From: Octopus sinensis
Taxonomy: Eukaryota
Direction: 5' to 3'
Assembly (NCBI RefSeq): GCF_006345805.1
Contig: NC_043024.1
Span: 15,810,001-15,874,000 of the forward strand
DNA length: 64,000 nucleotides
Shown here in pieces: positions 22,040-62,507 of this stretch. The notes under the pieces are model-generated. The model worked only from the letters and a program-made list of their open reading frames with translations, was not told where the DNA came from and ran no database searches. The number at the start of each line of letters is the position of its first letter. The stretch's first letter is position 1. A program made the position numbers and the translations under genes.

Positions 22040-22189
22040 ATGGGTCTTCTTATAGAAGGTACTTTAATGACATGGGAAGAAATCAAGCCTTATATTTTAC
22101 ACATCAAGAAACAAGCAAGAATGCAGTTCGTTCATGTGTATAAGAAATACAAGGACCAAAAAAATTATCCCCTTTATTGGGGTGATGAA
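22040..22189 (+). CDS. GCLC: GCLC-like coding exon 1 (MGLLIEG...YWGDE)
   Basis: ATG at 22040; GAA|gtaagt donor; 150 nt, phase 0. Confidence 0.95.
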
Positions 22190-24100
22190 GTAAGTATAAG
22201 CTATTTTAGTAATTTGTCTGCTACATATATATGACTGTGATTTTTAACACTATGTGTATATAAAAGATTCTTTCCTGAAGTGAAAACTGCAGTTTATCAG
22301 GTTTTTAACGATATATCTGCTTTAAGTATGGTATACAGATTGCTATTTTGAACTGATACTACTTCTCTTGCCAATGACATTATCTAGTGTGTTAGTTTAA
22401 TGCCGCACCAATGATTTGTTAATCGCTATTTTTTCTATAACAATGTAGCAGGCTAAATTTGTCTGAGCACACGGTTGCTTGTGGATTCTTATAACTGATG
22501 ATGCTCAAAGATGTAGAAATACATATTTAGCAAATGCTACTACTGCTACCAGATACTTTCCATCTGACACTGATGTGTATTTGTTAACACTATACATCTA
22601 TGAGATGTTTTCTCAAGATGTATACAACAGCTGATCAGGCTTTCAATGATATACTTGCTTTAAGTAAGCTATACAGGTTTCTCTTTTGAACTAATACAGC
22701 TTACTCTTTGACTAACTTGTGATTGATTTTTCCTAGTATGTAGTTCCAGTTGACTCTTGCTACTGAGGAAGTTCAAAGAAACAGACTATTTCTAGCAATA
22801 TATGTGCCTGTAACACATATAGTCACAATTAGTGACAACGAAATTTTGCCTATACAGTTTATATTGTGCCCAACTGCCCACAATTTTATACTATATATCT
22901 ATAATACATTAAAAGTGAAGTTCACTCTTGCTTGCTTGCAATGTTACACAGCCAAACTGGCGCATAATGAGAAAATACTTTGAAAGTAAAGTCCTCCTGA
23001 TATGTGAATACGAACGGAATAAAACTAGTTTCATGTAAATCGAACCAGTAATTATTGAGATATTCGGGGTTTTGGAGTATAAATACCCAGAATGGTACAT
23101 AATGGGAAAATACTCCAAAAATAACCTAACCCTGAAAGGGAATAAACTAGCCTTTCCATTAGACACATTGTGATGGGGAAAATATTTTAAAGTGAAAATG
23201 ACTTTAAAAATACGTAAATATTTCGTAAAAGGCTTGTGTGTGAAATTTTTTTCCATCGGTTTCCTTTGAGTGCATTCAGCGTATCTCACCTCCAAAGATT
23301 AGGCTACTATTTCTAGCACACTTTGCCACCACGTAACAGCTATTTGCGATAAAGGACCCGAAATACCTGTTACGTGGTAGCAGGTCGTGCAAGAAATAGC
23401 AGCCAACTCCTTGCTTTTCTGGGGAAAGGGGCTGTTTACGCGTGATTTCGACGTTACATTCATTGAAAGCATGCCACCAAATAACATGGAAAAGAAAAAA
23501 ACCCACGAAATAAAACTCCGTTGGTGGGAAACTCAGATTTCCTCGGTGACCCAACGGGTCACAGGTAGCCTAATATATATATATATATATATATGTATAT
23601 TAAAAATTATAACTGAGGGCACGAGGCACCAGCGTTGCCATACATAAGAGTCGAAAAATATTCTAAGTCACCATTTCACTGAAAGCACAACAGGTCTACG
23701 AAAACTGAGGGATGAGCAAAGAAATTGGTTAACCATCGTGGCAGATAGTTACAAATGAGGTTACAGATATCTCTGTATCATATGATTTCAAACTTTGAGA
23801 TGTTTCGCTTTGTTCTCATCAGCAGGTCTTGCTGTTTACCTAGGGTTAAAATCTTTACTCACTTCGTCATGCCTGTTGATCGTTGAAAGAACAGTGTCAA
23901 ATTTCAAACCATGTCAATGTATAATTTTACATTAATAAATATAGATATCATTATTATTATTGAGTGAGAGAGCAGTGCAGGTCATCAAGGTGACACTGGG
24001 GTAAAATATACGAATCCCAGTATACCCATCATGACTACCCGTCTGATAAGGGTACACCGGGCACATGAATCACAACCATATGCGCGTGACATGGTGATTA

Positions 24101-24153
<53 letters not shown>

Positions 24154-24288
24154 GAGTGAGAGAGCAGTGCAGGTCATCAAAGTGACACTGGGGTAAAATA
24201 TACGAATCCCAGTATACCCATCATGACTACCCGTCTGATAAGGGTACACCGGGCACATGAATCACAACCATATGTGCGCGACATGGTG

Positions 24289-24339
<51 letters not shown>

Positions 24340-24498
24340 GAGTGAGAGAGCAGGGCAGGTCATCAAAGTGACACTGGGGTAAAATATACGAATCCCAGTA
24401 TACCCATCATGACTACCCGTCTGATAAAGGTACACCAGGCACATGCATCACAACCATATGTGTGCGACATGGTGATTATTATTATTATTATTATTATA

Positions 24499-24561
<63 letters not shown>

Positions 24562-25765
24562 ATTATTCCTTCGTAACACAGTGTAGGTAAAAATGCATTG
24601 GAGTCTTTAGTCATCTGTCAAGTCACAACAAGGACCTCAGACAGATGATACTTTCCTTAAGATGTGCGCTGTGCCCAATACTGCTGCTTTTTGCAAGACA
24701 TTAATCTTGCCTGCAGGCTGCTTTCTTTCCTCTTTCCATATTAAGTACTGAGCATTTGGTAATCCCAAATTCCATACCGATGTCTCTACCACACTTCTGG
24801 ATTGTTTTGGTTACAGAATATATCTGTTTTTCAGATTTCCCAAACAATTTCAGGTCATCCATAAACAGAAGATGGTTCAAAGATGGGCCTTTCTTCCCAT
24901 ATCGGTAACCCATCTTAACTTTTCTCAGTGTCACTGTTATGAGTATTAGTGCAATTACAAAATGTAACAGAGAAAACGAGTCACCTTGGAAGATTTCCCT
25001 TTTAATATTAACTTCTCCAAGGAATATATTACTTCAGTACAATTTGGTTTTCCACTCGTTCATGCTATGCATCAGAAAATTTGTGATGTCAGCAACACCA
25101 AACATCTGCAGGCATTCAACAATCCAAGAATGAGGCACCATATCATATGCCTTCTTAAAGTCAATCCAAGCCATAGATATGTTCGTATGATGTTTTTACA
25201 ATGCCTCAAAACTGTTTTATCGATGACCAGGTGATCCTTGGTACTCTGAGAACTCTTCCTACGTCCTTTCTGTTCCCTTGGTAGTATTTCTTCCTGTGCC
25301 AGGAAACTGTATGTCTTTGCCGCACATATTCCAGTGAGTATCTTCCAGATTATGTTCAGGCATGCTATGGAACGGTAGTTTCCCACAATATTCCCCTTTC
25401 TTCTACATTTCATTACAAGTGTTGTCCTCCCAGTCACCATCCACGTGGGGATTGTACCTTTCTGCACACACTTATTCAATTGGGCTGCTAGTCTTTCATG
25501 CACTGCGTGGCATCTCTTCAGCCAGTCTGGGGGCTTTCCAGTTAGGCACTTTACCCACTTGTTCTTTCACATTGCCTGTGCTTATAATATTCCTTAGTTT
25601 CTTTTCTCCGTGTAATTCTGTCTTGATAGTTCCTATCCACATTGCATCCCTCTTATGCACCACGTTCTTTCCTCCATAATCCAATCCAGAACTCCTTGGC
25701 TTGATTTGCATCAGGAGTAACATTTTCTCCCATTGTCTCTTTCTAACGTTCGAAAGATCTTCCGA

Positions 25766-25809
<44 letters not shown>

Positions 25810-25889
25810 TGATCAGGAAGCATTAAAACCAATAAAAGGATGAATCCATAAACTTTATAATTAATTAATAATCATAATTGAGGATACAC

Positions 25890-25930
<41 letters not shown>

Positions 25931-26776
25931 TACCCGTTACACTCTGTAAAGTGGTTGGCATTAGGAAGGGCATCCAGCTGTAGAAACCAAGCCAAATCAA
26001 ACTGGAACCTGGGCAGCTCTCCAGCTTGCCAGCCCTGGTCAAACTAGCGCATACCAGATGATGTTAAATGATGATGATGGTCCAAATTAAATTGCATAAT
26101 TGTTCTTTTTTAGAGTGAATATTCCTTAATACAATTTGACCATGAAAAGCGAGTTGTCCAGTTGCTTTTGGCTGCCACATCTCTACTTGAATCTCCTCAA
26201 TTAAAGGAATCAGAATCATTGTGAGTAAAATTACCATATTTTCCAGCAGACAAGTCAAGTATTTGCAGATTAAAATTTACAGTCAAAGTAGGGCGGGTCG
26301 ACTTATACACCAAGATGATTTTGAGGGACCAAAAAATCCATTTGAAATGCAGTGAGATTTGCTTGTTGATGCTTGATACCAATCCATAGAATGATTGTGT
26401 CACAGAATCTTGACAATATTCTACAGTGAAGCAAAGGCAGCGTGTTGGCAGCATCGTTAGCGTGTTGGACGAAATGCTTAGCGGTATTTCGCCCATCGCT
26501 ATGTTCTGAGTTCAAACTCCGCTTAGGTCGACTTTGCCTTTCATCCTTTCGGGGTCGATAAATTAAGAACCCGCTAAACACTGAGATCGATTATTTACAT
26601 TATTTACAATTGACAGATTTTTGTCCTCAACTTGTTTATTGTTAACTCAACGTTTCGGCTGATATACCCTCCAGCCTTCACCTTAGGGAAATTTTGAACC
26701 TGGGTTCTCATTCCTAAGGAATTTTTCGATGTTGTTGTTATTATTATTATTATCATTATTATTATTATTATTATTA

Positions 26777-26833
<57 letters not shown>

Positions 26834-28416: not shown

Positions 28417-28451
<35 letters not shown>

Positions 28452-28929
28452 TGTAGAGTAATAAAGAAAATTTAAGATGTTTTATAAAGAAATTTCTTTA
28501 ACCTAATATTTTATAATTGTATTTGAACTTTTCTCACAAAAATTAAATATTCCTACTAATTGAGCGAATTTCTGATGACAATTTTGATAAATATAATCTC
28601 GTTTTTTAAACCCAAAATGCCAAAGCATGTGGTCTCCAGAATATACCGAATTTATGATGGAAGGCCACCCCAGAAAACCGTTTGGCAGTTCCATCACCAA
28701 CTTGAATCTTATAGAAGAACATTTTAAAGAAAGGTAACCATGATATTTGTAATTTCCATTATTTACATTTTACACAGAAATATTTAACGTTTTATTTATT
28801 TATTTATTTTTCATATTGTTCATTTTGTAAACAATTACATTGTTGTTGGTTTTTGGTTTCAACCAAATTCCTGGTTCTCTGTATTTCTAGTGTCAGCATA
28901 TTTGAATCTACAATGCCAACTGTTTAGTA

Positions 28930-28966
<37 letters not shown>

Positions 28967-31405: not shown

Positions 31406-34368
31406 TGTATGTATGTATGCATATATGTATGTGTGTGTGCACGTCTGTACGTAGGTATGTATGTATGTATGTATGTATGTATGTATGTGTATGTGTATGT
31501 ATGTATGTATATATGTATGTATGTATGTGTGTATGTATGTATGTATGTATGTATGTATGTATGTGTGTGTATGTATGTATGTATGTATGTATGTGTGTAT
31601 GTATGTATGTATGTATGTATGTATGTATGAATGTATGTATGAATGTATGTATATATATATGTGTGTATGTATGTGTGTTTGTATGTATGTATGTATGTAT
31701 GTATGTATGTATGTGTGCATGTATGCATATATGTATGTATGCATATATGTATGCATGCGTGCACATCTGTATGTAGGTATGTGTGTATATATGCATGCAT
31801 GCATGCATGTATGTATATATATATGTATGTGTGTGTACGTCTGTATGTATGTTTGGGTGCATGTATGTAATGTATGCATGCACATATGTATGTATGCATG
31901 TATGTAGTTTTGTGTATGCATATATGTATGTAAGCATATGTGTATGTCTGTATGTATACTTGTATGTATGCTTGTATGTGTATGCATATATATATATATA
32001 TGTATGCGTGTGTGTACGTTTGCATGTATGTGTGTATGCCTATTTGTATGTATGTATAGGTGTGTGTACGTCTCTGTATGCAAGTATTTCTGTTTTACTG
32101 TGAAAACTTGAATTATCACATACTCAATAACGAATGTTTTTCAATTTCAGACGTAAATCAATAAAGCAATTGTTGGGCCCAGACCAAAGTTTAGTTTCTT
32201 TAACAGCTTTTCCCAGGTAAGCAAAATCTTAACGGTAATGTTGTGGGTTGGTTTTTTACATAAATATTTATGTTTTTATGTTATTATTTATTTACGTTTT
32301 TATTAATTGTTTTTTGTATTATTAGATAATAGTGAGCCGGCAAAACTTTTAGAATTTGAACTCAGCATATAAAGTATACTTTTCAGCTTTACATTCTGAC
32401 TTCAAATTCCACCATGGTTGACTTCTACATTGTTGGATAGTGAAATTGTACACCCGTCCCCGGTAAAAAGTGGTAGGAACCATCCATTATAAATAGACCA
32501 GTAGCCGGTTATCAAGAGAGGGTCGAGAGTTCAAGAGTTGAGAGGCGATAGTTCTTGTCGGTGTCTTGCAGAGCTATCAGTGATAGTAAGACAGAAGTTA
32601 GTGTATTATTATTCTGGTACAAAGAGATACAATGGTATCAGATGACTAGTACTGTAAATCCTCGAGTATAGTCCGCCCTTGAGTATTAATACACAGGGGA
32701 TTTTTAGGGGGCTGTACCTCTGAAAAACCTACACCTTGTTAAACGCAACCCTTCTCTAACTTGAGTCAACTTGGTTTGTAAAAATGTATATGGTATCGTC
32801 CTTTATTATTATTGTATATATAGCATAATGCAAACGTGTAGCTTTTTTCTGCCTTTTGTTTGCAGAAAATAAAGAAATAACAGTAATAATGTTTAATAAA
32901 TCTTGCTTACTGCAAGTTATTGATGATTCTTTTATGACTTCCTTGCTTTCAGGTTGAGCTTAAGGTATTTTCGCGCCCGACATCACAAAATGCGTCTGAA
33001 GAAACATAACCAGACAGCAAATAGAAAATAATTTTCATATTTAACCTCATATATAGTACACACTAGGGATTTTGACCTTTAAATTTTGGGAAAAATTGCA
33101 GATTATACTCGAGGATTTACAGTAACTATTGTGGCTACTAGTATAAAACAGCAACTACAATAGAATGGCAGTCACACATCACACCAATGTGAGGAACCCA
33201 CTTAACAACAGACATCATAAGATAAATACCAGTTGAGCACTGGGGTCGATGTAGTTGACTTACCCCTCTCCTGAATTGCTGAACCTGTACCAAAATTTGA
33301 AAGCAAAATGTGACTAGTTGGTAGAATGGTTAAGATGCCAGACAAAAGGCATTGTGTTGTGAGTGTTTATTGAGCAAAAACACCTAAAGCTCCAGGAGGC
33401 TTCGGCAGGGGTGGAGTGATCCCTGCTGTGCTCTTTTGCCACAACTTTCTCTCACACTTTCTTCTGTTGGCCTACTAGATTAACCAGTGGGGTGGTATCA
33501 TTTGAAGGATAAAACAATGCAAAGTGCATTGTGATCAACGATGTGTAGCAACATCTGATAGCCTGGTTGGTTATGGTAATCACAGTGATCACTATATGTA
33601 TAAATATTTTAATGTAATTATTTTTATATATGCATTCAAAAGTATATATATATTTCTACCTATAACTCTACCCATTTTATTTTTTATTTTTACTTACATA
33701 TTTATACACCCGTATTACTTAAATTTTTATAAACATATTTACTCTAATATTGACATGCAAGGTTAATTAGAAGGTTAATTACTATATATTGTTTATCTCT
33801 ATACTTTTTAATGATTACCCAGAATATATTAAATTTTTATAAACATATTTACCTTTATATTAATTTGATACTTAAATATAATTTTAATTACTATATATTA
33901 CTTTCCTTTATACTTTTAATGTTTACCCAGAGGATATTTATATTATTTTCTATATTTACTTCTCTAAATATACTACCTTCCCCCCCATCCTTTATAAGGT
34001 CTATACCAAATTTTTCTATAAAACAATACTCAGTTTGCTGAAATGCTCCGTACACTTAGCACAGAAAAACATAAAAATGTAATGGTATATCTTTTTTCTA
34101 CCTCTGACGAGATTCAACTTTATTATGATTTAATTATTTTAATTAATTTTTAAAGTTTGAATCGAAAGAGCTGTCGGGGATTATGTCCATTTTTGTAATT
34201 AATAAATATAGTCATTAATTAATTTATTTCAATTTTCTTATCATTATATAAACCTTGCTTCAGTTAATCCCCTATTTTTGAGATTTAAACTAATGTTCAA
34301 AACAAAGAAACCAGTAAATTCATTGGATATTTTTATCCCACAATGAGGCTTATTTAACCTCTAATTGA

Positions 34369-37928: not shown

Positions 37929-40105
37929 TAATAATAATAATAATGATAGCTGAATAGAACAAATAGCATGGTATTGTAGGCTGCAGTTAGTAAGGCTGCT
38001 ATACATGTACGGTTCCAGGCACTCCAACGAAACCTGTGATAAAAAGATAATGATAATAATATTAATAGCGATGTTTGTGTAGATGCATTTTATATGGAAA
38101 CTGATTAGAATAATATTCAAGTATTTAATGGCATAAATAATGCCAAGTGGATAGGTCTTTAATTATGAAAGTCTTCTAGAAACCTTCATAATTTAAACTA
38201 ACCATTTCCTGTTAGAAGTTGGCAATGAGATATCTTTATTACAATAACAGAAACTGAATTCTGTTGACTCATTGAAATCTTTAGCATTTAATCTGGCCAT
38301 AGCTGGTGAAAATATTCTACTTGTTTTATGTTCAAACTGACCAGATCAGGCCTCTCAAACCTACCCTACAATGTCATTCTAATAATAAACAACAACATCG
38401 TAAAAATCTCAAAACTTCAAAATAAAGCAGGATTAATTGAAAACAATGTGAATATGCACCACATTTAACAGAATACACACTATATTTAACTGAGTGATAT
38501 GAACACTAAAGGGTTAAAATTGTTCCAACTTCTGTTTCAGACTGGGCTGCCCTAATTTTACTTTTCCCTCTTATGAAGCAAACAAGCATGCGACCGAACT
38601 GCACCAATCAGTTTTCATTGCAGATGCTGCGCTGACTGCAAAAGATCCATTCTTTTCGTAAGCCATTAATTTTTCTTTGTGTGTTTGTGTGTGATTTATA
38701 TTGTCCTAGCTTTTTTTCCTTGTGTTATGGTGTACAAAGTAGTTCAAATTCCATCAAGGTCGACTTTGTCTTTCATGATGAAAGACAAAGTAAAATATTC
38801 TTTTCTTTTCTAGGCACAAGGCCCGAAATTTTGGGGGAGGGGGCCAATCAATTAGATCGACCTCAGTACACAACTGGTATTTAATTTATCAACCCCTTGA
38901 AAAGCTGAAAGGCAAAGTCGACTTCAGCAGAATTTGAACTCAGAACTTAAAGACAGACGAAATGCTGCTAAACATTTCACCCAGCACACTAACGTTTATT
39001 TCTTTACTGCCCACAAGGGGCTAAACATAGAGGGGACAAACAAGGACAAACAAAAGGATTAAGTCGATTAGATAGATCCCAGTGCATAACTGGTACTTAA
39101 TTTATTGACCCCTGAAATTTATCGACCCCTTGGCGGAATTTGAACTCAGAATGTAAAGACAGACGAAATACTGCTAAACATTTCGCCCAGCATGCTAACA
39201 TTTCCACTAGCTCGCTGCCTTGACAAATTACAATATACAATTTTGAAGGTTGATATATTTAACAATGCCCTTCACTGTCAAACTGTGTGGCCTTGTGTCT
39301 CCATTCATCATCATCATCATCACCAAAGTAAACAAGCACGCAACCAAGCTGCACCAATCAGTTTTCATTACATATGTTGTGCTGAATTCCAAAGATCCAT
39401 TCTTTCCATGAGATCTTTTCTTTTGTGTATGTGTGTGTAATTCATATCATCTTCGTATTTTCCTTTGTTATGGCGTACAAGGCAGTTCAAATCCCGCCGA
39501 GGTCAACATTGTCTTTCATCCTTTCAGAGTCGATAAAAGATCATAGAATTTTGATGGTTGATATAATAAACAATGCCCCACACCGCCAAACATGTGTGGC
39601 CTTGTTCTTACATTAGCTATCAAAGACATGAGGAGTTTAGGTCAAGGTAAACCATAATGAACTGCAAGGAATATCATTAAAGAGGCACTTTCTTTCCCCT
39701 GTCTATCATTCATATCTTCAACCATTTCTCTGATGATGGAATATCTAGTTTACGGTCTTCAATTGATGCCATGATCCAATAGCTGAGATTTCTCAGAAAC
39801 AACTGTCAGAGACAATCTCTGCTATCTTTACCAATTTTGTATTACTTTACTGCTTTTAGATTGAATTAAATGAATTTAAGTGCCATAGTCCTGCCTTGAC
39901 TAATTGCTTGCCTTCTTCACTACAATAACCGATAGGCGTAGGAGTGGCTGTGTGTTAAGCAAATTGCTTACCAACCACATGGTTCCGGGTTCAGTCCCAC
40001 TGCGTGGCATCTTGGAGAAGTGTCTTCTATTATGGCCTCAGGCCAATGAAAGCCTTGTGAGTGGATTTGGTAGATGGAAACGGAAAGAATCCTGTCGTAT
40101 ATATG

Positions 40106-43100: not shown

Positions 43101-43503
43101 AATACTCGGCAGCTTTTCCCTCCAGCTCTTTACATTCAGAGTCAAAATTCTGCCAAGGCCAACTTCGTCTTTCATTGTTTTGGCACCGATAAAATAAGTA
43201 CAAGGCAAGCCCTGGGTGTGTATGTGTGTGTGGGGAGGGAGGGGGTCTAATTGACTTCTTCCTCTTCTCATAATTTCTAGCCTTGTACCAAAATTAGAAA
43301 GGAATATATTAAATGTTTTATACTTTCTCCATCCAGAAACGTGAATGAAAACATAGTGCATAGAAGAAAAGAAAGGATTGCTATCAATGTACCAAGTAAG
43401 TGTACTAATCAACTATCACAACATGATGTCAAGATCAAGTGACACAAAGGTGTACACACAAATTTGCATACATATGTGACTTATTTCAGTTTTCAGTTAT
43501 ATT

Positions 43504-46375: not shown

Positions 46376-49300
46376 CATCTGTTTTTGTCCTCCACCACCA
46401 CTTGACAACCAGTGTTGGTGTGTTTACATCCCTATAACATAGCGATTCTGCAAAAGAGAGAGAATATGTAGCAAGCTTAAAAGGAAAATAAGTATTGGTG
46501 TCGATTTATACAGCTAAAATTCGTCAAGGCAGTGCCCCAGCATGGCCACAGTCAAACGACTGAAACAAGTAAATGATATATATACTCTCTTTACTATCTT
46601 ACTTGTTTCAATCATTTGACTGCGGCCATGCTGGAGCACCGCCTTTAGTCAAAGAAATCGACCCAGGACTTATTCATTGTACGCCTAGTACTTATTCTAT
46701 CGGTCTCCTTTGCTGAACCGCTAAGTTAGGGGGACGTAACCACACCAGCATCGGTTGTCAAGTGATGTTGGGGGACAAACACAAACACACAAACATATGT
46801 ACACACATACATATATACATATATACGATAGGCTTCTTTCAGTTTCCATCTACCAAATCCACTGACAAGGCTTTGATTAGCCTGAGGCTATAGTAGAAGA
46901 CACTTACCCAACGTGCCACATTGGGATTGAACCCAGAACCATGTAAGTGGGAGCAAACTTCTTACCACACAGCCACACTTGTGTCTTTTGGTCAAATACA
47001 TTTCCCTCTTGTGAGAAAATCGCTAAAGGTTAGATCTGCTGAGTGTATCATTTGAGTCTAGTTTCTATGATTATCAAAGTGATTTTAAGAATTATTATTT
47101 GAACCTTATTTTGATGAACATATAAATTGATCGCCCCAAATATTCCTGTTTCAGTTTATAAAGATAAAAATACCATTATGCCATACGGAGAAGACATGTC
47201 CAAATATGGAGACAATAAAGAAATGAAGAAATATTTGAAACCAGGCCATATTTATATGGATTCCATGACATTCGCGGCTGGTTGTTGTTCCCTCCAAGTT
47301 ACATTTCAAGCTGCTGATATAAAAGAAGCTGCTTATCTTTATGATAATCTGGTACCTCTTACTCCAATTATGGTAGGTATTATTCTGTTCCTTTGTTAAG
47401 ATCTCCTTTCAAGTATTGGCACAACACTAGACTATTTAATACTTTACTCTTTACTCTCTCTCTTTTACTTGTTTCAGTCATCTGACTGTGGCCATGCTGG
47501 AGCACCGTCTTTAGTCGAGCAAATCAACCCCAGGACTTATTCTTTGTAAGCCTAGTACTTATTCTATTGGCCTCTTTTGCTGAACCGCTAAGCTACGGGG
47601 ACATAAAATCGGACAAAAAAATGCAAAAGCTGCAGGAAAACCAACACCGTTATGGGAATTTCCATTCAAACTCCTGCTTTAGCTCACAAAAATCGATGCC
47701 AACAGAGCATTATCGAGTTTTAGAAAAATTCCGACTTTATTTGAACTTCAGGGCATGTGATCTACCTATGTGCCCAAAATCATTGAAATCGGTTGGACTC
47801 TGTGGGAGGAGTTAGCGTAACCCCGAACACACACATGGACAGACACATGGACAGATTTATGTATATAGATTACTCTGAATTGTTTTAGTAGTGCAACCTG
47901 TTTGATGATGAGCCATGCCTTAAGTGGTTCACTTCTCCAAAAAGGTTGATCATATCTAGTATAGACTGTCAAGATATAATCCATTAACTATATATACCAT
48001 CAATATAGTGTATGCTGTCAATATGTACTCCATTTACATACAATGTCAATACAGTCTAGACTGTCAATATTTTCTCCATTAATTTATACCGTCAATATAA
48101 TTTAGGCTATCAGCGTGTACTCCATTTACATATACTGTCAATATTGTCTAGACTATCAATGTGTACTCCATTTACATATACCGTCAATATTGTCTAGACT
48201 ATCAATGTGTACTCCATTTACATATACCGTCAATATTGTCTAGACTGTCAATGTGTACTCCATTAACACACTGTCAATTGAGTTTCATCCTTGAATGTGT
48301 ACTCTATTAACATATTGTCAATATTGTTTAAACCACCAGCATGTACTTCATTAAAATATACCATCAATATAGTTTAGACTCAATATGTACTCCATTAACA
48401 TACCGTCAATATTGTCAAGCTGTACTACATTAAACTTTTTAGCATAATACCATCTATTGTGTGTATGTGTGTGTGTGTGTGTGTGTGTGTTTGTCTTTGT
48501 ATATGTGTTAAATGCTGTATGTCACAAAGATTGAGATAACCATACAAGAGCATCTTGGAAAGAGAGAACGCTAAAAGAGAGAGAGGTGAGATGAGAGAAT
48601 GAAAGGAAGAAAGAGTGGGAGAGAGAAAGGAGATGAAGGAGAAACATTGACTTGAAAACCATAAACTACAAGAGACAGTGAGATGTGCAGCAATCATATA
48701 AGAAAACTGCTTACGAATACAACTAAAGACCACCACTTTGAAAACAAGACAAAGATTCAAAACAATTGTATTCTTGTCTAATTTTAATCAATATTTTTGT
48801 GAAAAATGCTCATAATTTAGAATTGAGTAATTCGATCTCTAATTGTATCCATTTATATTTTTTCCAGTTAGCACTGACCGCTGCAGCTCCCATTCATCGT
48901 GGATATTTATCTGGTACTGACTGTCGTTGGAGTTCCCTTTTTCAAGCTTGTGATGACCGTACCAAACAAGAACAGGGTCTAGAAGTGCGTTTTAATATAT
49001 TTACTGTATTTTGGTCTAGACTACACACTGATCACATGCCACTTGTAGGTCCTCTCTCTCTGCTTCCCTCTCTCTATCTTTAAAACTTTATAACTTCCTG
49101 ACGTTGAAATGTTCAAAAGTTTGAGATTCTTTGAAAATTCTGAGAAATTGATATTTTTTTATGCATTATTCCAAAATTTTTTCGATGGTTTTTTGTAGTT
49201 TGCGTAGTCTATTAAAATCTCACCCCTTCACTTCATTTTCCCAGTTTTTACTTTTTCACCTTTGCTTGTTGTGTTCATAAGTAATTTTGACTTCTCTTAA

Positions 49301-52300
49301 CTTTTATCTTAAGTTTCCCTGATTTAGCCTGATAACAATATTTCACCTTCCTTAGTATTACTCTGTTGTTTTTCTTTACTAGATATTGAGATGTATTGAA
49401 ATGTGGTTGGAGATGCTTGAAGTGCGTGTTTAACACTTTTACTTTGAAAATCAGATATATTCATCCAAAATTTCATTATCTTTAACTGTGGAAAGCAGTT
49501 TTATACACCAATCTATCTTTTGTTGAGGAATGTCATTTGAAAGTATTCTTAGTTGAGATATGTTTAATTTATTGTTCTTGAAATAACTTGCAAAAAAATA
49601 CCAATTCTTTGTTTGGTACACATTTAACATCATTATTGGAATAACCATGAATATTTCACAGTTAAATATGTATTTTCACTGTTACAAATCATCATAATAA
49701 TCTTTTCTGAAGAGATGTTAATTCATATTCTAATATGAGACCATCTTTATTACAGATGGTCTCGGGTAAGTTGAAATTAAATGAGTTTCATTAAAGAATG
49801 TTATCTACTTTTATTTTCTCTTCTTCCTTTTAGCCTTTGACAAATGGTAATGTTTTGGTGGCAACAACTCGTTACGATACAGTATGCAGTTACCTTTCTG
49901 TGAGCAACAAGTTTTATAATGACTATAATTGCAGTTATGACCATGAGCAGTATGAATTATTGAAGGCTGAAGGTATTTAGAAATTTAGAAAAGAAGTTTT
50001 TGATTTATTTTGTATAAAAATATTTTGACAGAATTATCTTTTTTCCCTTACAACTTTGCTACTGTGTTGTAAATATTTAATGGTGCAGAGGTTGGTTCTC
50101 ATCCAGGGTCCATGCAACTGTTAGGGGTGCGTATAAAATTCTGTTTTTAAAGTTTATGCGCAGCAAGTTGGATATATTGATGTTGTGTCCAAGGGAAAAG
50201 TAAAGGGGCTGATACAGTTTGGCACCTGTGATGTCACAACTCATTTCTACAGCTGAGTGAACTGGAGCAACGTGAAATAAAGCGTCTTGCTCAAGAACAC
50301 AACACACAACCTGTTCTGGGAATTGAACTCACTACCTCATGATTGTGAGTCTGATGTTCTAACCATGCACCTTCACATGTCAAGCAACTGACAAGCAAAT
50401 CTGTGGTATTGAGCAGAATATTTGCTATAACGATATTTCTGCTTCAGCAACTCAGCAATGAATCTTTCTGAAATGTAATGGAAAATAGGTCAGTTTTAAA
50501 ATATTGATGTCCAGGTCAGAAAAGCAAAGCTTGAAGGGGATAGTAGTCATTTCCTTTGATTTCTAGATTGAAGCAAATAGGAAATAACACTTATTGACCA
50601 CAGACAAAGAAAAAAAAAGAGATAAGAATTTTGTTACACAGTGCAATATTATCATTGGAATATGTAGTAAACAAAGAAAGTAGGTGATGTGAGAAATGAA
50701 AGAAAATTTCATATTTCTACACGGTTACAGCTGTTTCATAATTTACTTCAGGTTACATCATTAACTTTGATATATAAGTGCATACCTAGTCTATACAATG
50801 TACATACACATATAAATGCATGTATACACACACATCAGACATTATGCAATACAACTGTATAATCATATAAAGATGTACAAGAGAGAAATCTAATTTTTAC
50901 ACCATATACTTGGCATTTCAAATTTGTGTGTGTGTGTACATTATATATATATATATATTCAGATTTTTCTGTATGCTAGACCACTGGTTTTAAATTGATA
51001 TTAATCAAATTAATATTCAATTTTTCACCCTTATTATTTTATATGTATATATATATATATATATGTATGTATATATATATATATACATATATATTTATTA
51101 TATAGAAGGAGCTTCTACAGGACTAGAACTGTTTCATTCAAGAGAAATCTTCAGGAAGCTAGTTAACAAGAATTGTATTGGCATTTATACATTTAGGCAG
51201 GTTTAAAGGGGTGTTGGTGGGGGACTTTTTGGGGGTAGGCATAGCGCAAAAAATCATACTTGGGGGAGTGGTCAAGGAGTCAGTGTTAAATTAGATAGGA
51301 GAATAAATAAAAAATAAAAAATAAAAAATAAAAAATAAAAAATAAAAAATAAAAAATATAAAATATAAAAATAAAAAATAAAAAATAAAAAATAGAAAAT
51401 AAAAAAATAGAAAAAAATAAAAAAATAAAAAAATAATAAAATAAAAATAAAAAAATAAAAAAATATACATATATATATATAATTTCAACAATTGAGGGTA
51501 AAATTAATTAATTAATTAATCAATTTCACCAAGTATTCAGTATGCAAAGGGACCATTTAAGGCAAATTCAAATTATTACATTATATAAAAGGGCTTAGTA
51601 AAATAAATTACTTTGCCGCATACTGAACTCGTTAGAAATAGCAGCTAAAAAAACTATTTCTAACACTTAAAGAAAACCTCTCTCATATAGTGTTTGCTCA
51701 ATTCAACTCAAGAAAGTATGAGGGTAGAGACATTAAAAAATCAAATGCAAAGGTTATTTGAGTACGTACGTTTCAAGATTAGCCAAAATCGACCCTTCTC
51801 TCATCAGCTCAGAATGCCCTTGTTTGAATTTGAAAACACTGAAAATGGGAGCATACCCTTTCGGCTTGTTATCGCTTCTGAAGATCTGTTCCAAACTAAC
51901 AGTGCCAACAAACTCAAATATGCAAGAGAAAAATTTCTGCTCTCCCCTTTCCACCAGCGTGGGTTAAAATCAGCAAACACTATGCTTTTTTCGGTAAAAT
52001 CCGAGACAATTAAGTAGAGAGAGATGAATTATAATTTCAACAATTGAGGGTAAAATTAATTAATTAATTAATCAATTTCACCAAGTATTCAGTATGCAAA
52101 GGGACCATTTAAGGCAAATTCAAATTATTACATTATATAAAAGGGCTTAGTAAAATAAATTACTTTGCCGCATACTGAACTCGTTAGAAATAGCAGCTAA
52201 AAAAACTATTTCTAACACTTAAAGAAAACCTCTCTCATATAGTGTTTGCTCAATTCAACTCAAGAAAGTATGAGGGTAGAGACATTAAAAAATCAAATGC

Positions 52301-54607: not shown

Positions 54608-54724
54608 GCGTACCTACAGATTCATGTCTACACTCTTAGAAGGCTAGTCTATACATATACACCCATAAATATAAATACACACACATACATACATGTACAC
54701 CTACATACAAATACATACATGTAC

Positions 54725-54771
<47 letters not shown>

Positions 54772-54979: not shown

Positions 54980-55032
<53 letters not shown>

Positions 55033-55149
55033 GTACATGTATGTATTTGTATGTAGGTGTACATGTATGTATGTGTGTGTATTTATATTTATGGGTGTAT
55101 ATGTATAGACTAGCCTTCTAAGAGTGTAGACATGAATCTGTAGGTACGC

Positions 55150-55186
<37 letters not shown>

Positions 55187-56615: not shown

Positions 56616-58604
56616 AAGTGCTATCAGTTCTCTCTTGAAAGCCTGCTACAATTTTATAAATTTAATTAATTAGAATATTTGTTAATTAATCAGGTGTTGA
56701 TGAAATGATGGCCAAATATGTTGCCCAACTCCTAGTTCGAGATCCAATCCTTTCATTCAAAGAGAGGATCAATCAAGACGTTACCAAGGATACTGAACAC
56801 CTTGAGGTAAATAAATTCGTTCAATGTTTCTCGAATTGATTTGTTGACATTATCGAGTGAGAAATTGACTCTAAAATGCATAAATTCTTATCTACCGTTT
56901 GTCTTCAAGATGTGAAAGATTCTGAATGAGGATTTGACCATTCAGCATTCAAATTCTCCTCTCAAATGCTATGCTTATTTATTCACATTGTTTTGAGTTA
57001 ATAAAGCATTATTTTGTAGCTTTGAGGTTTCGATGATATTGTAGGGTAGGTGTGAGAGACTGGATCTGGCTGGTTTAAACATAAAACAGGTAGAACATTT
57101 GCACGGGATACAACTGAGTCAACTCTTTAGCATTCAGATTACTCCGTCAAATGCAATACTTATTTATTCGTATCATTTTGAATTAAACATCCATTATCCT
57201 GTAGCTCTGAGACTTCCATGCAATGATCATCTATTTTTAGAATGACTTTTAGGCTAGGTGGGAGAGGCCACATCTGGCTTGTTGGAACATAAATCAAGTA
57301 GAATATTTTGGCCAGATGAGGCTAGTTTGAATGCTAAAGGGTTAAAGTCAGCAACTTTTCAGCATTCCCTTGTACTGTGTTATACAAGTGCAGAAGGACA
57401 ATGGTGGACACGGAAAACAAGTAGAATATTTTGACCAGATATAACTGGTTTAAATGCTGAAAGATTGATGTTATTCATTGTATTTTAAAGTTGGTGGAGA
57501 CAATTGACATTCGGTCTTACTGTCTCTATAATCCTGTTTTATTTTCTGTTTCAGCTTATCATATCCATGAACACACCTAATATAAGACTGAAGCTGCCTA
57601 CAGAAGATTCTGGATGGAAAATAGAATTCAGATCAATGGAGGTAATGTTAAAGTGAATGGTTACATTACAAGAATTTAGAAATTTCAAGGAATATGCAGT
57701 ATTTTTTTTTAATGCTGGTGCCACATAAAAAGAATCCATGTTGGTGCCACATAAAAGGACTCATTGCTGGTGCCATGTAAAATGCACCATTACTGGTGCC
57801 ATATAAAATGCATCCATTATGTAAAATGCATCTGTACTGGTGCCACATAAAAAAACACCCATACTGGTGTCATGTAAAATGCACATGCGTTAGTGCCATG
57901 TAAAAACGCACCCATGCTGGTGCCACGTAAAAAGCACATGCACTGGTGCCACATAAAGAGAACCTGTGCTGGCAGTGCCATGTAAAAAGCACCTGTACTG
58001 GTGCCATGTTGGTGCCATATATGAAGCATTCATGCTGGATGCCACATAAAATGCATATATATTTAACAAGACATGTTGGTTAAGACCAGAACAATACAAA
58101 ATGAGATATAGAGTAAACTGCAAAAACAAAACAAACTTGTAGCTTTACCTTATATTTCTATATTCAGAACATTTGGGAAAGCAAGGGATGGAAAGAAAAG
58201 TCGTTGCTCAAATGTGTAGGAGTGGAAGGGGACATGCGTGACATTCACAGACTGGTGTTGCTATAGTAACCAATCAGATTCATGCAGTTCTTTTCTGTTG
58301 TTTATGGCTGGTCTCCGTTTGTTGATAAGGAGGGCCTCCAAGGCTCTGAAATTACCTCTAGAGCCCTTCCTTTTCAGCAAACTGAGATAACAACCATGAG
58401 ATATAGCAATATAAAACTACAATTTATTTATGATTTTATTCAACATTCCCTTCCCAAATTCACACCCTTATTACAGTGGTCTGTTAGTTTTTCTAAGCCC
58501 TGTAGAAGAACCCGGAAGGTTAGGCCTCCAACCAGGCTTTTTATGACCCCCTTAAATCTAGGAACTTTTCAGAAACCCCTCATGTGCATGCATGTGTGTG
58601 TGTT

Positions 58605-58638
<34 letters not shown>

Positions 58639-59997
58639 TTTTTCTGCTCTGATGAGTACTTTGATATTTGCATATTCTGAAAATGAATTTATATCTATGT
58701 ATGAAACGATTGTATGCATGAATAAACATCTTACAACATTTTAACATCTTACCTTCTCCAGTTTTGACAAATATGATTAGATTTATGGAACTTCATTCTG
58801 TAACTTAATCATTCACTTTATATTTATACATATATATAAATTTCTATATTTCCAGCTTCAATTGACCGACTTTGAAAATGCTGCCCTTGTTGTATTTATC
58901 CTGCTTCTTACCAGAGCTATAGTTACTTTCAAACTATACTTTTTGATACCATTATCAAAGGTAAATATTTCTCTACAATAGATATTGAATTCTTTGATAT
59001 AGCCATAGGTCTGTGGGCCATGGCAGGTGTTTAATGCTTTAGCATTCAGATTACTCTATTAAATGTGAGGCTTATTTGGTCATATTGTTTTTAATTAATC
59101 ACGCATTATCTTATAAACTTTAAGATTTCAATGAAGTGATAGTTCATTTTCAGAATGACATTGTAGGAAAGGTATGAGAGGCAGGACCTGGCTCATTTGA
59201 ACATAAAACAGGTCGAATATCTGTGCTGGATATGGCTGGTTTCAATGCTAAACTGCCTAATTTTCTAATGAAACATTAAAAAATATTTTCATTTCTGCAT
59301 CCTTTCAACTGGTTTAAAATCACAGCCATCTTCTTTAAGGTTGTTCCATCTCATTCATCATTTAAAGTCCACTTTTCCAGGCAAGAATTAATCAGATGGA
59401 ATATTATTTGCAGCAGATTTTCTGTGGCCAGAAGCCCTTCCTGTTACCAACCCTCATTTATATGATGGTGATGAATGCTTACAAGCATTATGTGATGTAA
59501 AAACAAGGGATCTCAAACACGTACATACATACATACACACACTGGAAGACCCTATGTTTGCCAACAGGACTCTGCATCATGCCACACAAGCAGGAGAACC
59601 CAGTATTGGCTGTCAGACAATTTCTGTGACCACATCACCCTTAACATTTGGCCACCTAACTCCCCAGACTGCAACCCTTATAATTATTATTTGTGAGGTG
59701 CAGTTGAACAAGAGACAAACAAAACTCCTTGTAACACCAAAGATGACCTGAAGGCAAGGATTATGGCAGCATTCACCAACTTAAAGAAGGAAGAGTTGCA
59801 GAAGAGTCCAGAAGAAATTCTGGAGATTCTGAAGTCGTCCGGGGGCCATGGTTGATGCTAATGGTGACTTTATTAGATAAATATACTCTTTAGTATGTCA
59901 AGATACTTTCATGTAATTTTGGCAAATATATCTGTTAAAATGAGAAGTGTTATTTTCATTTTTGCATAATTTCGATGATAGTTTATTCATCACACCC

Positions 59998-60967: not shown

Positions 60968-62507
60968 TTATAACGGTTTCCTTGCCTTGACATTACATGA
61001 AAGGTTTGCGTGCACATGCACGTGTGTGTGCATATATTTCCCCAACCACCACCCTTTGACAACCATTGTTGGTTTGATTAAAACCCTTCAAGGCAATGTC
61101 CCAGCATAGCCACACTTCAGTGACAGAACCAATTAAGAGATAATAATCTAGAAACCATTTATTTTCAAAGGAAGATCCCTTTTTCAGGTTCTCTCTCAAA
61201 TTGCATTGTGACTAGTGATGTACAGCAACATCTGATGGTCTAACTCAGTGATTCCCAAACTTTCTTGAACTGCCATCCCCAGACACCCAGGCCACATTCC
61301 TAGCACCCCCACCATCACAGACATAGGCCTCTTTCTGAAGCAAATTCAGAACAACAATGTGAGGTATACTTGCCATCTCAATATGGCTAACCACTAAGGG
61401 TGAGTGTTACTGTAGCTTGTAGCCCCAGGAGAACATCATCTCCAGCTGGCTTTAGCAGAGATTTATTATTTCAGAACAACAGTATTTCACAAATAAAAAC
61501 TTAACCTAATGAACTCATTATTTTTTTCATTATTTACACGAATCACTACCCCATTATCGCCCCACTTTTTACATAAACCACTCTCCCATTATCGCCCCAA
61601 TTTTCTTCAACACCTTGAAACTTTCCACCACACCCAGGGGGCAATCCTGCCTATTCTGGGAACCACTGGTCTAGCTGATCATGTAATCATGTGATGTGTG
61701 GATTTGATCCTACTCATCTCAATATCATGTGATGCAAATGTGATTATGATAATGAAGATACCTTTATAACACTATATGTATTTTGTCATTTTCCATGTAA
61801 CTCCAACCACACAAAGGTTGCTGAAGACGTTATAACAGCACAAAAGCCAGACGCTGTTAATAAAGAAAAATTTCACTTCAGGAAAGATATTGGAAAAGGT
61901 AAGAACTAAAATTTCTCAGAAATTTTGAGAGTGAAAACTTAATTTTAACATTGATTAAATATTGTGAATGCATAGAAGATATATTTTATTGCTTAGCAAT
62001 GGGTCAAGCTCGACTAAAACATATGGTCAAATGCATTCTATCTATGATCATTCTGTCTTTTTGGGGTATAATACAACTACATTTTTCACTGTGTCCTACT
62101 ATGTGTCAAATGGGAAGTTGATATCAATGAGATTTAGCTGTTATTTCTAGTTGATCAGGCAGCCATGTAGCTACTTCTCCAGTCTTGGGAATGACAATTA
62201 AGGCCCAATGAAAATTGATTGGTGCTTGGCATGCTCATAACTCTGCCAGTTGCTGCCTTACTGGAGTTTAATATTATCTTTAGTGGAGTAAAACAAGGGG
62301 TGTTATGTACCTTAATTATAGGAAGGTTAGGGTGATGGGGTGACAAGCACATAGGCAAACACCGTTATTTGTCTGTTACACTATACAACACATGCAGTTA
62401 TTGTACTAATATATAATTCTTTTATTTCCTGTCAATTAGAATCTGCTGATTGTGAAATGGCTGATGTTTACACATTGATGACTTTAGATGAAATCATGAA
62501 TGGCAAG
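22040..62507 (+). CDS. GCLC: Glutamate-cysteine ligase catalytic subunit-like gene, 14 coding exons in window (1536 nt, 512 codons), 3' end beyond window
   Basis: Exons joined by hand at GT-AG sites keep one open frame. GCLC motifs appear in the right order: MGLL..WGDE.EY, PEY..MMEG, FPRLGCP, HIYMD..LQVTFQ, DCRW..DDRT, RYD, RDP, GW.IEFRSME, QLTDFEN, FRKD, YTLM..IMNGK. Symbol denotes the family; likely a paralog. Confidence 0.93.
23962..24476 (-). repeat. Three 137-bp copies separated by (ATT)n
   Basis: Copies at 23962-24098, 24154-24290 and 24340-24476 with identical ends. Confidence 0.9.
24567..25770 (-). mobile_element. Dong/R4-like LINE RT remnant between (ATT)n/(AAT)n tracts
   Basis: [34 protein letters not shown] motifs in broken frames; internally deleted. 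Confidence 0.8.
26114..26220 (+). CDS. GCLC: GCLC-like exon 2 ([19 protein letters not shown]...KESES)
   Basis: tttttag acceptor, gtgagt donor; resembles VEYMLVSFDHENKKVRL; ends phase 2. Confidence 0.9.
28626..28733 (+). CDS. GCLC: GCLC-like exon 3 ([20 protein letters not shown]...FKER)
   Basis: Matches WRPEYGSYMIEGTPGQPYG; gtaacc donor. Acceptor ccaaag is the nearest in-phase AG and is weak, so the start is less certain. Confidence 0.8.
30550..30765 (+). mobile_element. RTE/BovB-like LINE 3' end
   Basis: Terminal C2H2 motif [21 protein letters not shown] followed by stop and short tail. Confidence 0.7.
31295..32080. repeat. (TATG)n microsatellite with degenerate 3' part
   Basis: Direct inspection. 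Confidence 0.95.
32151..32216 (+). CDS. GCLC: GCLC-like exon 4 ([22 protein letters not shown])
   Basis: tttcag acceptor, gtaagc donor; TAFPR motif; phases 2/2. Confidence 0.92.
32652..33122. mobile_element. TcMar (Tc2/pogo-like) MITE
   Basis: TIR CTGTAAATCCTCGAGTATA; TA target duplication. Confidence 0.85.
34101..34178 (+). ncRNA. Type I hammerhead motif with one stem III mismatch
   Basis: CCU CUGACGA GAUUCAACUUUA..UAAAGUUUGAAUC GAAA GAGCU GUC^GGG. Confidence 0.65.
34826..36958. repeat. ~2.1-kb (AAT/GAT)n microsatellite
   Basis: Direct inspection. Confidence 0.98.
36956..37786 (+). mobile_element. 5'-truncated Dong/R4-like LINE with CCHC knuckle and restriction-like endonuclease
   Basis: [36 protein letters not shown]; open to stop at 37623; (AAT)n on both sides. 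Confidence 0.88.
38541..38657 (+). CDS. GCLC: GCLC-like exon 5 (LGCPNFTFP...KDPFFS)
   Basis: gtttcag acceptor, gtaagc donor; LGCP.FT motif. Confidence 0.92.
39328..39407 (+). pseudogene. Diverged partial copy of GCLC-like exon 5 (pseudo-exon)
   Basis: Reads [27 protein letters not shown] versus [27 protein letters not shown]; donor GT changed to AT; downstream intron also duplicated. Confidence 0.85.
39725..39812 (+). ncRNA. Degenerate type I hammerhead motif
   Basis: UUUCU CUGAUGA UGGAAUAUCU..AGAUUUCUCA GAAAC AACU GUC^AGAGA. Confidence 0.55.
39933..40348 (+). mobile_element. SINE family A, full copy
   Basis: Collinear with 19009-19425. Confidence 0.85.
40700..41275 (+). mobile_element. 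RTE-type LINE 3' fragment, same family as 12503-14055
   Basis: [27 protein letters not shown]; 22-bp repeats in 3' UTR; (GAT)n tail. Confidence 0.7.
43337..43395 (+). CDS. GCLC: GCLC-like exon 6 ([19 protein letters not shown])
   Basis: atccag acceptor, gtaagt donor; 59 nt; matches NIRHRRGEKVVINVP. Confidence 0.92.
44067..44428 (+). mobile_element. Non-autonomous Helitron-like element
   Basis: GC-rich subterminal tract then CTAG-T end; partial inverted copy at ~47603-47870 begins 5'-TC. Confidence 0.6.
44547..45042. repeat. Palindrome with 237-bp arms and 22-bp spacer
   Basis: 44547-44783 versus 44806-45042, about 3 mismatches. Confidence 0.92.
45661..46360. repeat. Near-perfect ~351-bp tandem duplication inside a SINE A microsatellite
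   Basis: 45661-46010 is almost identical to 46011-46360. Confidence 0.9.
46585..46980 (-). mobile_element. SINE family A, full copy, reverse strand
   Basis: Reverse complement of family A. Confidence 0.85.
47155..47372 (+). CDS. GCLC: GCLC-like exon 7 (YKDKNT...[21 protein letters not shown]...TPIM)
   Basis: tttcag acceptor, gtaggt donor; overlaps ORF 47127..47399. Confidence 0.95.
47960..48430. repeat. ~46-bp minisatellite built from two ~23-bp subunits
   Basis: ctccatttacatataccgtcaatattgtctagactatcaatgtgta, about 10 copies. Confidence 0.85.
48868..48984 (+). CDS. GCLC: GCLC-like exon 8 ([21 protein letters not shown]...QGLE)
   Basis: ttccag acceptor, gtgcgt donor; DCRW and DDRT motifs. 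Confidence 0.95.
49834..49972 (+). CDS. GCLC: GCLC-like exon 9 ([22 protein letters not shown]...LKAE)
   Basis: Strong polypyrimidine tract plus tag; gtattt donor; RYD..SYLS..YND motif. Confidence 0.93.
51110..51160 (-). ncRNA. Type I hammerhead motif, left arm of large palindrome
   Basis: Reverse complement of 56379-56429. Confidence 0.75.
51759..51811 (-). ncRNA. Type I hammerhead motif, array unit 1
   Basis: UGAG CUGAUGA GAGA..UCUU GAAAC GUAC GUA^CUCA: stem I 4 bp, intact core, palindromic stem III. Confidence 0.82.
52311..52363 (-). ncRNA. Type I hammerhead motif, array unit 2
   Basis: Identical to unit 1. Confidence 0.82.
52860..52912 (-). ncRNA. Type I hammerhead motif, array unit 3
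   Basis: Identical to unit 1. Confidence 0.82.
53410..53462 (-). ncRNA. Type I hammerhead motif, array unit 4
   Basis: Identical to unit 1. Confidence 0.82.
56379..56429 (+). ncRNA. Type I hammerhead motif, right arm of large palindrome
   Basis: AGCUUC CUGAAGA UUUC UCUU GAAU GAAACAG UUCUAGUC CUGUA^GAAGCU: stem I 6 bp, stem III 4 bp; U.U mismatch at base of stem II. Confidence 0.75.
56694..56806 (+). CDS. GCLC: GCLC-like exon 10 ([18 protein letters not shown]...TEHLE)
   Basis: atcag acceptor, gtaaat donor; RDP motif. Confidence 0.93.
57555..57641 (+). CDS. GCLC: GCLC-like exon 11 ([29 protein letters not shown])
   Basis: tttcag acceptor, gtaatg donor; GW.IEFR.ME motif. Confidence 0.92.
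57712..58053. repeat. ~22-bp minisatellite (gctggtgccacataaaaagcac)
   Basis: About 15 degenerate copies; same unit lies in the RTE 3' UTR at 41030-41125. Confidence 0.85.
58645..58718 (+). ncRNA. Degenerate type I hammerhead motif
   Basis: UGCU CUGAUGA GUAC..GUAU GAAAC GAUU GUA^UGCA; the same GAAACGAUUGUA 3' half occurs at 4328-4374 on the - strand. Confidence 0.55.
58856..58960 (+). CDS. GCLC: GCLC-like exon 12 ([14 protein letters not shown]...IPLSK)
   Basis: ttccag acceptor, gtaaat donor; QLTDFEN and IPLSK motifs. Confidence 0.95.
59544..59999 (+). mobile_element. Tc1/mariner maT-like (DD37D) transposase 3' remnant
   Basis: [22 protein letters not shown] with 37 residues between the second D and the third catalytic position (now N); in-frame stop; ends cacccTG. 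Confidence 0.75.
60035..60684 (+). mobile_element. Partial-tandem (~1.3 x 493 bp) hammerhead element in (TA)n
   Basis: 157-bp direct repeat at 60035 and 60528; (TA)n on both sides; complete hammerhead spans the unit junction. Confidence 0.8.
60455..60561 (+). ncRNA. Type I hammerhead motif with long stem II
   Basis: AUUUCUUA CUGAAGA AUCUG..CAGAU GAAAC GGUGCAUC GUA^UAAGAAAU: stem I 8 bp, stem II 5 bp plus inner hairpin, near-palindromic stem III. Confidence 0.85.
61246..61668. mobile_element. hAT (Charlie-like) MITE
   Basis: TIR CAGTG.TTCCCA; 8-bp TSD gtctaact/gtctagct. Confidence 0.8.
61817..61898 (+). CDS. GCLC: GCLC-like exon 13 ([27 protein letters not shown])
   Basis: caaag acceptor, gtaaga donor; AQK.DAV...F.FRKDI motif. 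Confidence 0.9.
62440..62507 (+). CDS. GCLC: GCLC-like exon 14 ([23 protein letters not shown])
   Basis: attag acceptor, gtaaaa donor; YTLM..D.I.NGK motif. Confidence 0.92.

Follow-up and report, generated by a model that had tools for sequence, protein, structure and literature searches.

The stretch of DNA analysed here, referred to below as the window, covers 64,000 nucleotides of the forward strand of the Octopus sinensis genome (NC_043024.1, positions 15,810,001 to 15,874,000) and contains most of a gene similar to GCLC, the catalytic subunit of glutamate-cysteine ligase (GCL). This gene, which we call copy A, lies on the + strand and starts at window position 22040. It is intact and spliced, arose by duplication within the Octopus GCLC lineage and is under purifying selection. 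Our gene model, for which database sequences related to exon 7 and a further 10 kb of the contig served as guides, has 16 exons, 14 of them inside the window and the last two shortly beyond it. Each of the 15 introns is of the GT-AG type and the frame is open, with 1821 nt encoding 606 amino acids. The product shows 0 differences from P0135, the O. sinensis RefSeq protein XP_029652761.2 (“GCLC-like”), whose record name, “glutamate--cysteine ligase catalytic subunit-like”, implies ordinary GCL activity. A preliminary description of this DNA had placed 14 exons with canonical splice sites and an open frame between 22040 and 62507. Those exons are real, and the motifs it named all lie where it put them on the + strand, but 62507 is not where the gene stops, since exons 15 and 16 follow outside the window.

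The copy A product scores 442.8 bits against the GCS domain (Pfam PF03074, cut-off 25), and a sequence search of the Protein Data Bank (PDB) returned yeast Gsh1 (3IG5, E 6e-96) as its sole match. A structural comparison with Gsh1 had been suggested in the preliminary description: the AlphaFold model (mean pLDDT 87.6) matches 3IG5 at a TM score of 0.89 (Foldseek E 2e-44). Yeast residue numbers, used below unless copy A is named, were mapped from an alignment of copy A with Gsh1, and the comparison set comprised 107 canonical GCLCs and 8 full-length paralog sequences. Asp49, Glu50, Glu52, Glu96, Glu103, Gln268, Gln272, Lys451, Glu470 and Arg472 are kept in 8/8 paralogs and 107/107 canonical proteins, and copy A also retains the glutamate-site residues Arg313 (its own Arg295) and Tyr362 (its own Tyr328). 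We take Gln268 to be an Mg2+ ligand and Arg313, like Tyr362, to be a residue for the glutamate alpha-carboxylate. According to Table 3 of PMC5613772, Mg2+ is bound in the yeast enzyme by Glu50, Glu52, Glu96, Glu103 and Glu470, glutamate is contacted by Tyr362, Glu52 and Arg472, ADP by Asp49 and Lys451, and cysteine by Glu96 and Trp445, the latter hydrogen-bonding the cysteine moiety.

In copy A, exon 1 (22040..22189) opens with the ATG start and ends with Asp49 and Glu50, exon 2 (26114..26220) carries Glu52 (26117-26119), and exon 3 (28626..28733) encodes Glu91 and Glu98, the counterparts of yeast Glu96 (28639-41) and Glu103 (28660-62). The kept Arg295 lies in exon 8 (48868..48984), the kept Tyr328 in exon 9 (49834..49972), and Lys411, Glu422 and Arg424 are kept in exon 11 (57555..57641). 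Exons 4 (32151..32216), 10 (56694..56806), 12 (58856..58960), 13 (61817..61898) and 14 (62440..62507, the last within the window) complete this part of the + strand model, together with exons 5 to 7, described below. Exon 15 (G000:C28:15875320-15875437, +) follows 1.3 kb and exon 16 (G000:C28:15876440-15876606, +) 2.4 kb beyond the window end. Domain score, Gsh1 fold, the Mg2+ ligands and Arg472, Lys451, Asp49, Tyr362 and Arg313 place copy A in the eukaryotic GCL family (EC 6.3.2.2; PF03074; PDB 3IG5, 3IG8, 3LVV, 3LVW), whose metal, nucleotide and glutamate residues it shares.

Copy A is not alone in the genome. A PF03074 search returned 60 exon-level matches, and exons 1, 3 and 7 used as queries gave 8 genome matches each, corresponding to seven diverged copies and one canonical GCLC on contig C4 (P0028). 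The presence of this canonical gene upholds the earlier view of copy A as a paralog and disposes of the possibility, raised at the same time, that it is the only GCLC in the genome. Copies A, B, C and D form a tandem array at C28:15.83-16.08 Mb, and copies F and G lie at C28:12.15-12.22 Mb. Copy E would join two halves found near assembly gaps at 2.10 and 2.30 Mb of C28, and the second half of copy G is presumably on scaffold C6395, onto which this copy seems to extend. All 15 intron positions and phases of the seven copies are common to the canonical Octopus GCLC, from which copy A differs in its pocket, its Cys553 equivalent and its C-terminal tail, and in belonging to a set of seven rather than being a single gene. 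Paralogs of copy A are also on record in the databases, as P0006, P0008, P0137, P0144, P0027 and Argonauta GAB1605628.1. Two irregularities occur in this assembly, a non-GT donor following exon 15 of copy B (G000:C28:15937980) and a gap of 1 nt where exon 13 of copy D starts (G000:C28:16029703); both may be assembly errors, because the database proteins read through them. Gene conversion is evident among the copies, with exon 16 of A and B 99% identical and exon 15 of C and D 100% identical. Exon 11 of copy A is only 64-69% identical to that of the other copies, compared with 86-93% for four sampled pairs among the others, and retains ancestral residues (the Glu438 and Ser442 equivalents) gone from the other six.

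Copy A differs from canonical GCLC in the acceptor pocket, which we compared over three segments totalling 28 sites, drawn after the alignment had been inspected. The first lies partly in exon 5 (38541..38657, +), where a DPFF motif puts Phe181 (38650-52) in place of yeast Arg196, and its remainder lies in exon 6 (43337..43395, +), where Val185 corresponds to yeast Leu200. Exon 7 (47155..47372, +) holds the second, with Ala244, Ser248 and Gln250 for yeast Met262, Cys266 and Gln268, the last being kept, and exon 11 the third, with Thr405 (57573-75) in place of Trp445. Overall, copy A has Asp for His194, Phe for Arg196, Val for Leu200, Thr for Gly259, Ala for Gly261, Ala for Met262, Ser for Cys266, Ile for Gln441, Met for Thr443 and Thr for Trp445. 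Each of these ten replaced residues is found in 105-107 of the 107 canonical GCLCs (Arg196, Cys266 and Trp445 in 107/107, Met262 and Leu200 in 106/107). Judged at Trp445, Arg196, Met262, Leu200 and Cys266 (Thr, Phe, Ala, Val and Ser), the copy A pocket is not that of a canonical GCLC, and 9/28 pocket-segment residues are identical to Octopus GCLC, against 54% identity for the whole protein. Tyr97, Arg196, Phe197, Leu200, Met258, Met262, Cys266, Gln268 and Arg313 were reportedly given their pocket roles by Biterova and Barycki (2009/2010), and Arg196 presumably lies near the glycine end of bound glutathione. Assembly error can be dismissed as the source of the substitutions, as the O. vulgaris ortholog P0001 agrees at 28/28 pocket-segment positions.

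While the acceptor pocket is near-invariant across the 107 canonical GCLCs, it differs in every one of the seven copies. Loss of Arg196 (7/7 copies), Met262 and Cys266 and alteration of the AQHVAHLF helix are clade-wide, whereas Trp445 to Thr, Gly261 to Ala and Thr443 to Met are specific to copy A; Trp445 is gone in A and F only. The preliminary description was correct that the core is intact and the pocket rebuilt, with the equivalents of Arg196, Leu200, Met262, Cys266 and Trp445 all replaced, but it missed that copy A is one of seven, and many of the changes it flagged belong to the clade rather than to copy A itself. Tyr362 is replaced by Phe in five copies. Copy F (P0137, C28:12.18-12.22 Mb) is the most altered, having lost Arg313 and Trp445 and carrying Phe for Tyr362, and its glutamate site may have changed as well. 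Beyond the pocket, copy A lacks the C-terminal tail of about 40 residues found in canonical GCLC. The equivalent of Cys553 (position 553 in three mammalian records) is Cys in 107/107 canonical proteins and 0/7 copies, being Arg in copy A and Pro in the other six. We assume this cysteine to be linked to the modifier subunit GCLM. PMC10135105 describes it as an activity-modulating adduct site.

Selection on the family was assessed from the ratio of non-synonymous to synonymous substitution rates (dN/dS, or omega), with fixed-site omega obtained from our own GY94 code, branch proportions fixed from model M0, and posteriors calculated by naive empirical Bayes. When the seven copies are compared in pairs (21 pairs), dN/dS is 0.21-0.42, and the M0 omega is 0.29, far below 1, as purifying selection requires. 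The 15 core sites have an omega of 0.068 and the remaining protein one of 0.27-0.29, but the value rises to 1.2 for the pocket segments (28 sites, p 2e-28 vs the rest) and 1.5 for seven contact sites (p 2e-10). Model M8 fits better than M7 (p 3e-5) and M8a (p 0.002), with the highest M8 posteriors at the Met258 (0.99) and Thr201 (0.98) equivalents. Canonical GCLC has 179 positions with an invariance of 97% or more, of which 27 show at least three states across the copies; 10 of the 27 fall in the pocket segments, which hold 18/179 (Fisher p 2e-5). Within the segments, Octopus GCLC has an identity of 0.83 to other canonical proteins; paralogs average 0.40 (15 pairs), and orthologs across Octopus species reach 0.71-0.96 (4 pairs). 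The pocket is mostly kept between orthologs, although two of the four pairs (C and E) show lower conservation in the segments than in the remainder of the protein.

The origin of the family was examined in a tree of 38 proteins (LG+C20+F+G4). Seven octopod sequences form one clade (100/100, stem 0.86), sister to the canonical Octopus GCLC (100/99; stem 0.14). Copy A is accordingly not the ortholog of animal GCLC, a position held by the C4 gene (P0028), and belongs to the derived sister clade. Among the matches listed, this clade contains Octopus species and Argonauta only, and no squid or cuttlefish (decapodiform) record, canonical or diverged, appears among them. The O. vulgaris ortholog of copy A has 7 differences over 543 aligned positions, one of them at the junction of its skipped exon, and no O. 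bimaculoides ortholog of copy A was present among 28 records compared.

Pocket remodelling is not confined to octopods. We surveyed 149 other 50%-cluster representatives (the best 150 of 4647 matches). Forty of the 149 show differences at no fewer than three of seven pocket sites, and 35 of these 40 retain the metal and catalytic core where aligned; 20 were looked up, 13 of which carry names. Arg or Lys at 196 is kept in 36 of the 40 and Trp445 in 35, which makes the loss of both, as in copy A, rare. The named remodelled copies come from Mytilus, Mactra, Mercenaria, Tachypleus, Halotydeus, Oppiella, Apostichopus, Rotaria and five fungi; Mactra is the one of these species in which a co-occurring canonical copy was checked for. 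In the tree, 6/7 animal remodelled copies are placed with their own lineage (support mixed), Halotydeus having no settled position, and a single clade uniting these animal copies with the octopod copies is rejected by the AU test (p-AU 0.003). A FastTree analysis had grouped most of the divergent copies, as one ancient second GCLC subfamily would predict, but the mixture-model tree and the AU test speak against this. Copies remodelled in a comparable way have separate origins in bivalves, chelicerates, a sea cucumber and a rotifer. The fungal pocket-remodelled GCLs (P0257, P0264, P0269, P0276, P0288) are from Aspergillus bertholletiae, Cyphellophora, Vezdaea, Tieghemiomyces and Ramicandelaber.

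Copy A is transcribed and spliced. Exon 7, whole or partial, is present in 20/24 sequencing runs listed, and sequences from 4 runs were aligned to 21800-33000; we treat these as RNA by assumption, as none is recorded as such. A 2552-nt contig (X2) joins exons 1, 2 and 3 exactly at the model junctions, and an 881-nt contig (X6), from a separate study, joins exons 2 and 3, with contigs ending or joining at 22189, the end of exon 1. These intron-free joins show that copy A transcripts are spliced across exons 1-3. Exon 3 is symmetric with a weak acceptor and is omitted from several database models. Since it holds two metal ligands and is absent from P0001, the O. vulgaris model, its inclusion is important. 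Both X2 (record 9) and X6 (record 24) include it, which argues against the exon-skipped, catalytically dead form implied by P0001. With spliced transcripts and dN/dS far below 1, the possibility named in the preliminary description as one that would refute its reading, a copy A that is unexpressed with dN/dS near 1, falls away.

Taken together, these data suggest that copy A is likely still GCLC-like on the ATP and glutamate side while being, by pocket residues and orthology, no longer a canonical GCLC. From the kept core residues we infer gamma-glutamyl-phosphate chemistry: copy A would activate glutamate with ATP and Mg2+ to form gamma-glutamyl phosphate, and would pass the gamma-glutamyl group to an amino group positioned by the Glu96 equivalent, as in GCL, with a partner other than cysteine. 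The predicted loss of cysteine preference rests on the loss of the Arg196, Leu200, Met262 and Trp445 equivalents. On balance, we consider it rather probable that copy A is an ATP-dependent gamma-glutamyl ligase with an acceptor that is not cysteine and is possibly an amine. The combined loss of Trp445 and Arg196 would favour an amine without an alpha-carboxylate and, within the non-cysteine reading, we put the chances of such an acceptor at about even. Different copies may take different acceptors, and copy A, lacking a Cys553 equivalent as well as the C-terminal tail, would be under looser control by GCLM. The canonical GCLC in the genome is available to make glutathione.

Several observations weigh against this proposal. 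Copy A still has the cysteine-pocket equivalents Tyr97, Phe197 and Met258. Five of the seven copies keep Trp445, which limits the argument from a missing carboxylate contact to A and F. Pocket omega is not significantly higher than 1 (28 segment sites, p 0.15; seven contact sites, p 0.07) and M2a is not significantly better than M1a (p 0.06), so that relaxed constraint also fits; furthermore, exon-level gene conversion can inflate site tests. Where transmitter-amine inactivation is concerned, PMC6454038 locates gamma-glutamylation in gastropods and describes their monoamine catabolism as unlike that of cephalopods and bivalves. The sole Aplysia protein among the matches listed is a canonical GCLC, and the remodelled mollusc copies were found in octopods and bivalves. 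For a panel of copies with differing pockets, conjugating a variety of compounds of dietary or glandular origin would be no less fitting a role than inactivating transmitter amines.

The best-surviving alternative is that copy A still makes gamma-Glu-Cys with altered kinetics, free of glutathione feedback or of GCLM, in a tissue with a high demand for glutathione. The equivalents of Tyr97, Phe197, Met258, Glu96, Arg313 and Tyr362 that copy A keeps would suit such an enzyme, as would the loss of the tail, of a Cys553 equivalent present in 107/107 canonical proteins, and of Arg196 with its presumed place by the glycine end of glutathione. Against this, the residue that hydrogen-bonds cysteine, Trp445 (PMC5613772, Table 3), is Thr in copy A, and seven different pockets in seven copies are unexpected if all bind cysteine; we regard this alternative as unlikely. 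A change on the donor side, making copy A an active ligase for an acyl donor other than glutamate, or a glutamine-synthetase-like or small-amine enzyme, receives little credence from us. Copy F lacks Arg313, five copies have Phe for Tyr362, and Cys266, which lies beside the glutamate site, has become Ser, but copy A itself has both Arg313 and Tyr362. Separately, a glutamine-synthetase family search of the genome, relevant to a lengsin-like candidate for amine conjugation, gave one uninformative match.

Copy A could also have lost ligation and become a pseudoenzyme or binding protein, with its fold and its metal and ATP site retained, like a lens or structural protein of enzyme origin. Changes at 48 of the 179 near-invariant canonical positions described above, a pocket omega near 1 that suits release from function, and the cephalopod precedent of GST-derived S-crystallins (PMC6635378) are compatible with this view. 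However, all catalytic and metal residues are kept and orthologs largely retain their own pocket, and the omega of 0.07 on catalytic residues makes a non-enzymatic role the least favoured of the three functions raised in the preliminary description (another amine, escape from feedback, non-enzymatic) and, in our estimation, improbable. Decay of a redundant duplicate, to which the copy B and D lesions in this assembly and the absence of an O. bimaculoides ortholog from the 28 records compared might point, is very improbable and largely refuted by the open frame, pairwise dN/dS of 0.23-0.42 at dS 0.47-0.67, splicing in RNA and the near-identical O. vulgaris ortholog.

Other features of the window and genome are recorded here in their own right. 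Positions 39258-39503 in intron 5 hold a decayed duplicate of exon 5 plus flanking intron; a mutually exclusive alternative exon near 39.3 kb was considered and rejected, as the duplicate has neither acceptor AG nor donor GT and carries a CAT-repeat insertion. The window also contains a reverse-transcriptase fragment (12452-12871, Pfam RVT_1), a 2.1-kb ATA microsatellite (34826-36959) followed by a retroelement-like open frame with no Pfam match (36775-37623), a 353-bp tandem duplication (45643-46364) and, in intron 9, mirrored repeat frames suggestive of an inverted duplication (53736-56013). Copy F has two intact copies of exon 15 (G000:C28:12183062-12183179 and 12180549-12180666), both with AG/GT boundaries, and the database isoform P0012 takes the upstream one, a possible alternative exon. 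Further copies of exons 12-16 on C8846, C9159 and C10460, 96-97% identical to C6395 with introns included, are haplotigs or recent duplicates of copy G. Finally, L041 (C9530) and L042 (C8391) contain a GCL gene that is compact, its introns being very short, and that has a canonical pocket and ~40% identity to Octopus GCLC; these contigs likely come from a contaminating parasite, which we guess to be a dicyemid.

YbdK/GCS2-type carboxylate-amine ligases and naphthylamine glutamine synthetases transfer gamma-glutamyl groups to non-cysteine amines. These proteins (PDB 1R8G, 8X6Z) share the superfamily fold with copy A at 8-12% identity, but the octopod clade derives from animal GCLC and not from YbdK/GCS2-type ligases. 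Closer in chemistry, Aplysia has an ATP-dependent gamma-glutamylhistamine synthetase (EC 6.3.2.18; PMC9547800), and gamma-glutamylserotonin occurs in annelids, Aplysia and cone-snail venom (PMC8155685). A reaction of ATP, glutamate and an amine is what would be expected of a GCL without acceptor-carboxylate contacts, and the relation of EC 6.3.2.18 to copy A is one of resemblance only. In the sources consulted, gamma-glutamyl-monoamine conjugation is described for gastropods and annelids but not for cephalopods. The gene for the Aplysia synthetase is not known to have been identified. We found no published study of the octopod GCLC-like family or its pockets, although subscription journals, bioRxiv supplements and large tables could mention it. 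Ligase terms were not found in the main text of PMC10230085 and PMC6635378, nor in the supplements of PMC7656900, PMC9068888, PMC9795677, PMC6635378, PMC9699675 and PMC12513265. Copy A is already annotated automatically, yet unstudied as far as we could find.

The usual view of GCLC is of an almost invariant enzyme with one purpose. The seven octopod copies, which combine a fixed core with differing pockets and are mirrored by separate duplications in other invertebrates, point to unrecognised gamma-glutamyl metabolites, and provide a ready set of enzymes for assays. More immediately, octopus “GCLC-like” annotations should not serve as markers of glutathione or oxidative stress. It is possible, and we suggest it tentatively, that animals have repeatedly turned duplicated GCLC into ligases for gamma-glutamyl-amines or other gamma-glutamyl compounds, that octopods have seven such enzymes with their own acceptors, and that copy A conjugates a biogenic, dietary or glandular amine. 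If this is true, these would be the first genes for animal gamma-glutamyl-amine synthesis.

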